DNA of 64,000 bases from Candidatus Aenigmatarchaeota archaeon (GTDB taxonomy: Archaea > Aenigmatarchaeota > Aenigmatarchaeia > GW2011-AR5), in contig JACQID010000004.1 of the NCBI GenBank assembly GCA_016198685.1, forward strand, positions 273,874-337,873, given 5' to 3'. The translations under genes were made by a program, and so were the position numbers. How positions within the stretch are numbered: position 1 is the first letter of the stretch; every line of letters starts with the position of its first letter. Shown here piece after piece: positions 17,138 to 19,011 of the stretch. A model generated the notes under the pieces. That model searched no databases. It saw only the letters and a list, made by a program, of their open reading frames with translations, and was not told the DNA's origin.

Positions 17138-17413
17138 TCACCATCTTGATATCTTCTTCTTTATCCTGTCCTCGGGCCTTGCGATTATAAAATTTCCATC
17201 CACGTCCACTTTTTTTCCATCCAGCATGAATCGGAAAACCGAGTTTTTCTTTTCGATTTTCTTGTCCCCTGACGAAGTTCTCACGACCATGACCCGCATA
17301 CCCTCATCTATCACCCGGCCGTTGATGCCGGTTTGCGACAAGTTCGAGGATTGCACGATTTCGCATTCAAGCCCTATGAATTCGTGACGTACAAGATTCC
17401 TTGCGTTTCTCAT
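17138..17413 (-). CDS. rnp1: Ribonuclease P protein component 1 (p29)
   Basis: HEFIGL, GINGRVIDE, RPEDRIKK; conserved position. Confidence 0.93.
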   Translation of the reverse strand: MRNARNLVRHEFIGLECEIVQSSNLSQTGINGRVIDEGMRVMVVRTSSGDKKIEKKNSVFRFMLDGKKVDVDGNFIIARPEDRIKKKISRW

Positions 17414-17719
17414 TCACTTCACTTCTATCATGTCTTCGGGAAATCCTTCCTGCACAAGTATTTTCTTGACCTTCTCCTTATGGTTTCCCTGAAGCTCTAT
17501 TTCTCCGTTCTTGTGGGTTCCCCCGCAAGCTAATTTCGATTTGAGCTTTGTCGTCACTTCCCTCAGGCTTATTTGCTTCTCGTCTATGCCCTTTATCACG
17601 GTAGTATATTTGCCGTATCTTTTTTGTTGCGTGTTTATAGTTATTTTTCTAGACTCTTTTGCTATCGTCTCGCATACGCATAGTTCTTTTGGCAAACCGC
17701 ATTTTGGGCAAACTGCTAT
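17414..17719 (-). CDS. sui1: Translation initiation factor aIF1/SUI1; proposed ATA start at 17719
   Basis: (M)AVCPKCGLPKELCVCE..., KLACGGT, IELQGNH; first in-frame NTG (TTG 17695) truncates the CPKCG motif. Confidence 0.93.
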   Translation of the reverse strand: MAVCPKCGLPKELCVCETIAKESRKITINTQQKRYGKYTTVIKGIDEKQISLREVTTKLKSKLACGGTHKNGEIELQGNHKEKVKKILVQEGFPEDMIEVK

Positions 17720-17916
17720 TGTGAACCACCTCTCTTTTTGGTCAGGAGCCTCGCTATAGTACGCCTCATTTCCCTGATATTTCCGGGATTCTTGACAGTA
17801 CTTCCGATTTCACTCAGCGCCATTTCTTTTGACATTTCGAGTTTTATCTCCTGTATCTTGGCGTCTATTTCTGATGCCTTCATGGCCTTCAACTTGTCTT
17901 TCTTTATTAACGCCAT
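17716..17916 (-). CDS. rpl29: 50S ribosomal protein uL29
   Basis: NPGNIREMRRTIARLLT; position after rps3. Confidence 0.93.
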   Translation of the reverse strand: MALIKKDKLKAMKASEIDAKIQEIKLEMSKEMALSEIGSTVKNPGNIREMRRTIARLLTKKRGGSQ

Positions 17917-17918
17917 AA

Positions 17919-18581
17919 TTATTCCTCTTTCATCTCTTGAACAGCATCTACTTTTACCGTCGTTGCTTCCTGCATCGGTACAGCAGCCTCGGCTATCTTT
18001 CTTACGCTGTTTGCGATCGACTGCGGATAATCAACCATTATCTGCACTGTCACGCCTATGTTACCGAGCTTGGGATTGGCAACCGCAAATCCCGTGCGAA
18101 CATGCTGCTTTGCAAGTTCGCCGGATTTCTTCACATATCCTGCAACGAACCTGTCTCTTCTTGAGCGCTCGCCCGAAAGTTTTCCGGACATCACTATTTC
18201 GCATCCTACTGCACCTGACCTCATTATCTTCTCAAGATAAAAGTTTCCAAGCCTCTTGTAGTTGACTCCTGATTCTATCTGCGAAGCCAGACTCTTTGCC
18301 ATGATAACAGCATCAAGGTTTGCATCATCTATCTTCTGAACGTCTATCTGCGGATTGTCTATCTTGAAATGAAGTCTCAATATGTCCGTTATTTCCCTTA
18401 TTTTTTCGCCACCTGATCCTATTATGAGCCCGGGAGTAGTTGTATGAAGCACTATTCTCGTCATTATAGGCGTCTTCTGGATTTCTATATCGCCCACCTT
18501 GGCTGTTGAGAAGTGCTTCCTGATGAACTCTTGCATATTGACTTCTTCCTTGGCCTTGGCTATGAATATTCTTTCTTTCAT
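17919..18581 (-). CDS. rps3: 30S ribosomal protein uS3
   Basis: PGLIIGSGG KH motif, GAVGCEIVMSGKL; start placed at ATG 18581. Confidence 0.96.
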   Translation of the reverse strand: MKERIFIAKAKEEVNMQEFIRKHFSTAKVGDIEIQKTPIMTRIVLHTTTPGLIIGSGGEKIREITDILRLHFKIDNPQIDVQKIDDANLDAVIMAKSLASQIESGVNYKRLGNFYLEKIMRSGAVGCEIVMSGKLSGERSRRDRFVAGYVKKSGELAKQHVRTGFAVANPKLGNIGVTVQIMVDYPQSIANSVRKIAEAAVPMQEATTVKVDAVQEMKEE

Positions 18582-18585
18582 TGTT

Positions 18586-19011
18586 TCACCGTTTTTGCTG
18601 CAGGTACTTCTTTTGGCTTGGCCTGCTTTGCCTTCCTCTTTCAGCAAGTATCATTTCTACATTAGCCGTCTTCATTATTGCACCGAATCCGGATTTTCTT
18701 CTTCTTCTCCTGAACATCGTGCCCTTGTGCGATGAAGCAAGGACGAACATCTTTGTCGTATCCAGACCTTGAGACACCGCATTCTTTTCGCAGCTTAAGA
18801 GCAAATCCAGCATTTCCTTTACGGTCTTGCTGTAGTATTTGCCTTTCATGCTTCGCTTGCCTGAATACAGGTCCTCAAGCATTTTCTTGACAACGCTCAA
18901 TTTCTTTCTCCTTATCATATTGCAAAGTATAGCTCCCTTCTTAGGGCTCATCCTGAGGTTGCTGCCATATGCTTTGGCATGCTTCTCTTCTGGTGCAAAT
19001 GTATAGGGCAT
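18586..19011 (-). CDS. rpl22: 50S ribosomal protein uL22
   Basis: AKAYGSNLRMSPK, LLLSCEKNA..GLD; position in S10 operon. Confidence 0.92.
   Translation of the reverse strand: MPYTFAPEEKHAKAYGSNLRMSPKKGAILCNMIRRKKLSVVKKMLEDLYSGKRSMKGKYYSKTVKEMLDLLLSCEKNAVSQGLDTTKMFVLASSHKGTMFRRRRRKSGFGAIMKTANVEMILAERGRQSRPSQKKYLQQKR

Follow-up and report, generated by a model that had tools for sequence, protein, structure and literature searches.

Genes for start-codon fidelity factors that limit their own expression through a suboptimal start are a known kind of regulatory arrangement. In bacteria, infC, which encodes IF3, begins at an AUU codon and is under translational autorepression, and changing AUU to AUG abolishes the feedback (Butler et al. 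1987, cited in PMC4705826). In eukaryotes, eIF1 (SUI1) is autoregulated by an AUG in poor context (Ivanov et al. 2010; Martin-Marcos et al. 2011, both by way of PMC4705826 and PMC6237735), and among such feedbacks PMC6237735 discusses only this eukaryotic loop. For the archaeal factor, a 30S-aIF1A-aIF2-Met-tRNAi complex of S. solfataricus accepts an AUU mRNA in vitro when aIF1 is absent and rejects it when aIF1 is present (Hasenohrl 2009, cited in PMC4705826). This biochemistry and that on P. abyssi (PMC6237735) concern the same factor as the gene described below and show the activity that a feedback model needs; neither line of work describes an aIF1 gene with a near-cognate start or an archaeal autoregulation. 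ATGA overlaps that serve termination-reinitiation in archaea and bacteria (PMC10666635) are, like the junction described below, 4-nt stop/start overlaps within an operon. In that work they are taken to need NTG starts, non-canonical starts come up only as something that might give rise to rare -5 overlaps, and no mention is made of an ATAG overlap combined with an AUA start. A full-text literature search, whose coverage leaves out most subscription journals, returned no near-cognate start on an archaeal aIF1 gene and no aIF1 autoregulation.

The DNA analyzed here, called the window throughout, is a stretch of 64,000 nt from a Candidatus Aenigmatarchaeota archaeon (assembly GCA_016198685.1, contig JACQID010000004.1, positions 273,874 to 337,873), and coordinates given without a contig prefix are positions in it. 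Its minus strand carries an archaeal ribosomal-protein operon in the order rpl4, rpl23, rpl2, rps19, rpl22, rps3, rpl29, aIF1/SUI1, rnp1, rps17, rpl14, rpl24 and rps4e. Read from an ATA codon, the aIF1/SUI1 coding sequence (17414..17719, minus strand) has 101 codons followed by a TGA stop. Upstream of it lies rpl29 (uL29; 17716..17916, minus strand; Pfam PF00831, Ribosomal_L29), which starts with ATG, and downstream rnp1 (RNase P protein p29; 17138..17413, minus strand; Pfam PF01868), whose ATG directly follows the aIF1 TGA. The position of aIF1 between rpl29 and rnp1 in a ribosomal-protein operon is found in the same order in Hadarchaeota. The rps3 ORF (17919-18647, minus strand) as called begins at a far-upstream TTG (MLKEEGKAGQ...) with an extension that does not align in relatives, and its true start is probably an internal ATG (MKERIFIAK...).

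The protein is an ordinary member of the aIF1/SUI1 family and shows every membership feature that we tested. It scores 75.6 bits against Pfam SUI1 (PF01253; cut-off 25.5) and 141.3 bits against NCBIfam NF002096 (cut-off 98), and no second SUI1 homologue occurs in the 0.93-Mb assembly. Positions 4-101 of the 102 in NF002096 align with residues 3-100 of the ATA-started protein, and residues 4-102 of M. jannaschii aIF1 (PDB 4MO0, whose chain sequence is also present in the 30S initiation-complex entries 5JB3 and 5JBH) align with residues 3-101 (E=1.1e-31), so the N-terminus of the family coincides with the ATA. The zinc knuckle CxxC...CxC typical of most archaeal aIF1 is present as C4, C7, C14 and C16, all four invariant in the family alignment (A1); their codons (CPKCGLPKELCVC) span 17672..17710 on the minus strand, and translation would have to begin at the ATA or upstream of it to include the whole knuckle.

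On the minus strand the start region reads, in the aIF1 frame, GAG AGG TGG TTC ACA ATA GCA GTT TGC CCA AAA TGC GGT TTG CCA AAA GAA CTA TGC GTA TGC. The frame is open from 17809, following a TGA at 17812-17810, and holds no ATG, GTG or TTG before the TTG at 17693..17695 (minus strand), which is the Leu9 codon inside the conserved motif CPKCGLPKELCVC. The first-pass annotation had stated that the CPKCG half of the zinc motif lies upstream of the first in-frame NTG, and reading the frame bears this out. It had also named the ATA at 17717..17719 (minus strand) as the best candidate start; there is no NTG between the upstream TGA and Cys4, and both the family profiles and the relatives place Met1 at this ATA. 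A Shine-Dalgarno sequence, GAGAGGTGG (17726..17734, minus strand), doubles as Arg-Gly-Gly codons near the rpl29 C-terminus, and its GAGGTG (17732-17727) stands, as had been proposed, exactly 7 nt ahead of the ATA. Across the genome, ATG is most frequent 5-7 nt after AGGTG, a range that takes in the spacing of this ATA. The rpl29 stop TAG (17716..17718, minus strand) overlaps the ATA as ATAG, an overlap already recognized in the first reading and one with the geometry of translational coupling, and the 4-nt overlaps of ATGA type invoked as its counterparts elsewhere in the operon are real at rps17/rpl14, rpl14/rpl24 and rpl24/rps4e. The predicted RNA fold of 101 nt around the start was no better than that of shuffled sequences (z = 0.14).

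The locus resembles infC in that a fidelity-factor gene would open with an AUH near-cognate codon, mismatched to the CAU anticodon at its third position, behind an ordinary Shine-Dalgarno sequence in a translation-related operon, and in that the unusual codon is evolutionarily conserved. It differs from infC in that IF3 and aIF1 are unrelated proteins, in that the codon is AUA and overlaps the stop of the upstream gene, and in that the infC feedback has been shown experimentally whereas that of aIF1 is a proposed one. Eukaryotic eIF1 belongs to the same family (SUI1, PF01253), likewise rejects poor start sites and shares the proposed self-limitation through a suboptimal start of its own. Eukaryotes, however, keep AUG and weaken its Kozak context within scanning, whereas here the codon itself would be near-cognate and positioned by the Shine-Dalgarno sequence and by coupling. 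Both sequence features of the infC/eIF1-type class, namely a suboptimal own start and a start that is conserved and largely gene-specific, were found, and the regulation proposed below would be a variant of this known kind.

We scored the homologous aIF1 start codon in 56 genomes, 43 of them from the same family (Candidatus Aenigmatarchaeota) with aIF1 and 13 at the level of the order. The codon was ATA in 13, GTG in 5, TTG in 1 and ATG in 37. Aligning rpl29-sui1 junctions across archaea for non-AUG starts, a comparison that the first-pass annotation had foreseen, showed ATA kept throughout the window's genus (all five genomes) and in eight genomes from five other Aenigmatarchaeota genera, and CTG in Hadarchaeota. 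The position of the ATA is invariant in 11 of these 13 genomes and one codon nearer Cys1 in the other two, and its flanking codons vary: the codon just ahead of it may be ACA, AAG, CAA, AAA, AGG or GAG. Six genomes (L001, L002, L005, L008, L040 and L017) have no in-frame NTG before the first Cys, and a seventh has only a GTG at -1. In three of the six, stops lie one or two codons upstream of the ATA: TGA TGA AAG ATA GCA GTA TGT in L008, TAA AAA ATA GCT GTC TGT in L040 and TAA AAA ATA ATC TGT in L017. These in-frame stops exclude an NTG start in those relatives and leave one or two candidates each, and ATA is the candidate codon common to the three. Two relatives with MAVC N-termini (L035 and L046) have ATG exactly at the position of the others' ATA, and read overhangs from a co-occurring relative give GTG GCT GTA TGT at the homologous position.

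Within the genus, 15 synonymous versus 2 non-synonymous changes occur between the codon that follows the ATA and Cys16, both included, whereas the count for the five codons that precede the ATA, taken in the aIF1 frame, is 0 synonymous versus 6 non-synonymous changes. Judged from these alignments, coding constraint of the aIF1 frame begins at the ATA. The ATAG or ATAA overlap with the rpl29 stop is conserved across the ATA-type genomes. In 6 of the 13 (L003, L007, L015, L018, L037 and L041) a TTG or GTG is also present two codons upstream of the ATA, overlapping the rpl29 stop as TTGA or GTGA in all but L041. This upstream codon lies 0-1 nt past the Shine-Dalgarno core, a placement that is poor for Shine-Dalgarno-led initiation and possible for termination-reinitiation, and those six relatives could start there. 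The window genome has TTC ACA as the two codons ahead of its ATA, which is therefore the sole start candidate in it.

Genes next to aIF1 served as a control. At the same loci the start is ATG in 54/54 cases for rpl29, 50/50 for rpl14, 52/54 for rnp1, 47/51 for rps17 and 38/40 for rpl24, as against just 37/56 for aIF1. Pooled, the control genes have ATG in 241 of 249 calls, though they are coupled equally by ATGA overlaps. In the genome as a whole, the aIF1 codon is the only ATA at 7 nt after AGGTG that opens a long ORF. A strong-Shine-Dalgarno scan of the whole genome, in which codons 4-8 nt after [AG]GGTG were taken if no in-frame NTG lay upstream (looser Shine-Dalgarno definitions were too noisy), returned 59 ATG, 8 GTG, 6 TTG and 5 ATA, and of the ATA hits only that of aIF1 gives a credible protein. 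The conserved ATA, the stops in relatives, the synonymous-only variation after the ATA and the clean neighbor control strongly support the AUA initiation that the first-pass annotation had proposed, and the single aIF1 gene of this genome is very probably translated from AUA at 17719-17717.

Two further observations concern initiation elsewhere in this genome. A 588-codon membrane-protein ORF outside the window (contig C1:101822-103585, minus strand; L201/L202) begins AGAGGTG TGAACC ACG AAA ATA.... A TGA precedes the ACG by two codons, and the first NTG comes 30 codons after it, within or beyond a transmembrane-like N-terminus. At the homologous codon the closest relative (G003) carries GTG, and the ACG may be either a start or a lesion. 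Searches of the genome with aragorn, with and without introns, with Rfam RF00005 and for a GGG...CAU...CCC anticodon-arm motif found no clear initiator tRNA gene. The sole CAU tRNA found is a long-intron gene at C6:223654-223788 that looks to be of elongator type (elongator Met or Ile2); many of the tRNA genes, of which aragorn and Rfam together found about 30, have introns.

The trait has arisen or been lost repeatedly. On a tree built from the neighboring genes, with aIF1 left out, the ATA state takes 5 changes, of which well-supported branches require at least 3, and one ATA pair is nested within an otherwise ATG genus. In a wider sample of 80 named loci, one genome per species, Methanomethylicota-type aIF1 has TTG in 8/8 loci (L081, L089, L096, L099, L100, L104, L112 and L133; AAC TTG AGY GAR ATH TGT), GTG occurs in a single Altiarchaeota and a single Nanoarchaeia locus, and CTG in four Hadarchaeota loci. 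We then sampled 66 Hadarchaeota genomes (loci L137-L199), 65 of which have aIF1 and 63 of which could be scored. Of these, 34 have CTG; ATG stands at that position in 19 and lies two codons farther upstream in 5. The remaining five have GTG (3), GTG at a different position (1) or ATA (1, L176, where it occupies the place of the upstream ATG). No NTG precedes Cys1 in 27 of the 34 CTG genomes, and in nearly all of them the CTG is preceded, two codons earlier and in frame, by a stop (GGAGGT GCA TGA GAG CTG CCA GAG GTA TGC; for example L137, L143 and L161). The CTG persists even where aIF1 identity to the reference is down to ~65%, no overlapping gene constrains its change to ATG, and it appears to be ancestral to a clade of 50 Hadarchaeota genomes. 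In L176 (G098:C4) the region reads TGC ATA ATC TCG CGA GAA ATC TGC, with 13 open codons and no NTG, and its ATA sits at the ATG of the sister clade (M S A Q E I C); L176 is a candidate for a second, independent AUA start in a different phylum. By these comparisons, near-cognate aIF1 starts recur in at least 2-3 Aenigmatarchaeota clades and, as CTG, in a deep Hadarchaeota clade.

Hadarchaeota neighbor genes often have GTG or TTG, and non-NTG starts in that phylum are essentially confined to aIF1. A three-genome clade (L191, L194 and L199) has rnp1 reading AGGAGG GAAAGC ATC CCC ATA ACA where its relatives have ATG CCG ATA ACT, and rnp1 appears to start at ATC there. Because of this small clade, near-cognate starts are to be described, in the genomes sampled, as strongly concentrated on aIF1 rather than exclusive to it.

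These data can be read as an archaeal form of fidelity-factor feedback. The initiator Met-tRNA would pair with AUA through a third-position mismatch, aided by the strong Shine-Dalgarno sequence 7 nt upstream and by ribosomes that end rpl29 at the overlapping stop (AUAG), this coupling setting the basal flux. AUA falls in the same third-position mismatch class as AUU and would be accepted more when aIF1 is scarce and less when it is abundant. Since aIF1 destabilizes initiation complexes on non-AUG codons, its own synthesis should track its level inversely: abundant aIF1 would lower aIF1 synthesis and scarce aIF1 would raise it, a homeostatic negative feedback. The recurrence of near-cognate starts on aIF1, with neighbors that almost never have them, together with the in vitro rejection of AUU, fits this feedback and gives it real comparative weight without proving it. 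We put a negative feedback of aIF1 level on its own AUA start at about an even chance, and the statement as a whole, an AUA-started aIF1 with self-limiting feedback, slightly above that.

The strongest competing explanation accepts the AUA start and gives it no regulatory role. On this account a change from ATG to ATA was tolerated where rpl29 termination-reinitiation and a strong Shine-Dalgarno sequence suffice, or a lower set-point was favored; drift in a small-genome symbiont then fixed the ATA, which became locked in place. The geometry of the overlap suits it: reversion of ATAG to ATGG would destroy the rpl29 stop, and part of the conservation of the ATA could thus be a ratchet imposed by costly reversion. 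An AUA mRNA with an optimized initiation region is as active as an AUG mRNA in E. coli extracts (PMC5499595), so AUA behind a strong Shine-Dalgarno sequence may be neither weak nor factor-sensitive; this efficiency, together with the rnp1 ATC starts, weakens the feedback reading. Near-cognate starts on other genes, namely rnp1 in the Hadarchaeota clade and the ACG candidate in the window genome, point the same way. Against an absence of any role, the equally coupled genes of the operon keep ATG almost throughout in the control calls, the ATA state was gained or lost at least three times, and the Hadarchaeota CTG, which follows a stop and one codon and is free of the overlap constraint, is still kept in 34 genomes. 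The gene affected is moreover the start-codon fidelity factor itself. We regard an AUA start with no regulatory role as rather unlikely, though it is by far the most serious of the alternatives.

The other alternatives deny initiation at AUA. Translation might begin at the TTG at 17695, giving a 93-aa aIF1 that lacks the first CxxC, with the upstream open frame untranslated. This TTG is the first NTG in frame, some automatic gene callers make forms of 91-93 aa for relatives, and Thermococcales aIF1 lacks the knuckle entirely (5ZCY alignment). A start there would remove Cys4 and Cys7, two of the four invariant Cys, and no Shine-Dalgarno sequence lies ahead of it. Over the eight codons between ATA and TTG, change is almost exclusively synonymous, and several ATA-type relatives, L007, L008, L040 and L017 among them, have CTG, CTT or TTA as the Leu codon itself. 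We rejected this start, which we consider very improbable. Public gene calls for aIF1 and its relatives (P0001-P0004, P0019, P0046 and P0075) disagree on the matter. NCBI-sourced calls give a 101-aa MAVC... protein from the ATA, which table 11 allows, and GenBank-style annotation thus silently takes ATA as the start for some of these genes. A JGI-sourced call gives LKIAVC... from TTG, the forms from an upstream TTG or GTG being 103-104 aa long. Calls on Logan and ENA assemblies give truncated proteins of 91-93 aa without the first CxxC, and another form of 113 aa begins at an ATG inside rpl29. Many public aIF1 entries therefore lack half of the zinc knuckle.

A still smaller probability attaches to recoding, in which the aIF1 N-terminus would come from an rpl29 frameshift or stop read-through and the product would be an L29-aIF1 fusion. 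The rpl29 and aIF1 frames do overlap at the junction, but there is no conserved slippery sequence, and the stops that close the aIF1 frame 1-2 codons before the ATA in L008, L040 and L017 leave hardly any window for a shift. The end of rpl29 also varies, with a TGA upstream in L003, L007, L015, L018 and L037, while the ATA stays, and tandem stops precede the CTG in Hadarchaeota L162. Least probable of all, to a degree that we consider negligible, is a sequencing or assembly error (G read as A; the ATA is one base off ATG in a metagenome-assembled genome) or a reassignment of AUA to Met in the lineage: four runs of one groundwater study, each assembled on its own (148x, 115x, 16x and 6x depth), yield contigs with no differences over 17400-17950 (these are DNA contigs, perhaps from the assembly's source samples, and exclude an assembly slip rather than give independent support; no RNA run turned up among those that carry the locus), the identical ATA is present in 12 other species-level genomes, and reassignment is excluded since 47 ATA codons of neighboring genes align in relatives to 1355 Ile versus 50 Met, Ile19 of aIF1 itself being encoded by ATA.

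The analysis contributes a DPANN lineage and, within Hadarchaeota, a deep clade to the cases of near-cognate aIF1 starts. Tentatively, and with somewhat less confidence than we have in the feedback itself, these starts (AUA in Aenigmatarchaeota; both CUG and AUA in Hadarchaeota) may be what shows of a homeostat widespread in archaea, by which the fidelity factor would meter its own output through a weak start of its own. It would be the third-domain counterpart of the IF3 and eIF1 loops and possibly a forerunner of the eukaryotic eIF1 loop. If the feedback is true, all three domains would regulate their start-codon fidelity factor by one trick, reached with unrelated proteins (IF3 versus SUI1) and with different cis features (AUU, poor Kozak context, AUA/CUG), which would imply that the level of the factor must be tightly buffered. 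It would also provide archaeal translation research with a natural, conserved near-cognate start on which to study aIF1 function.
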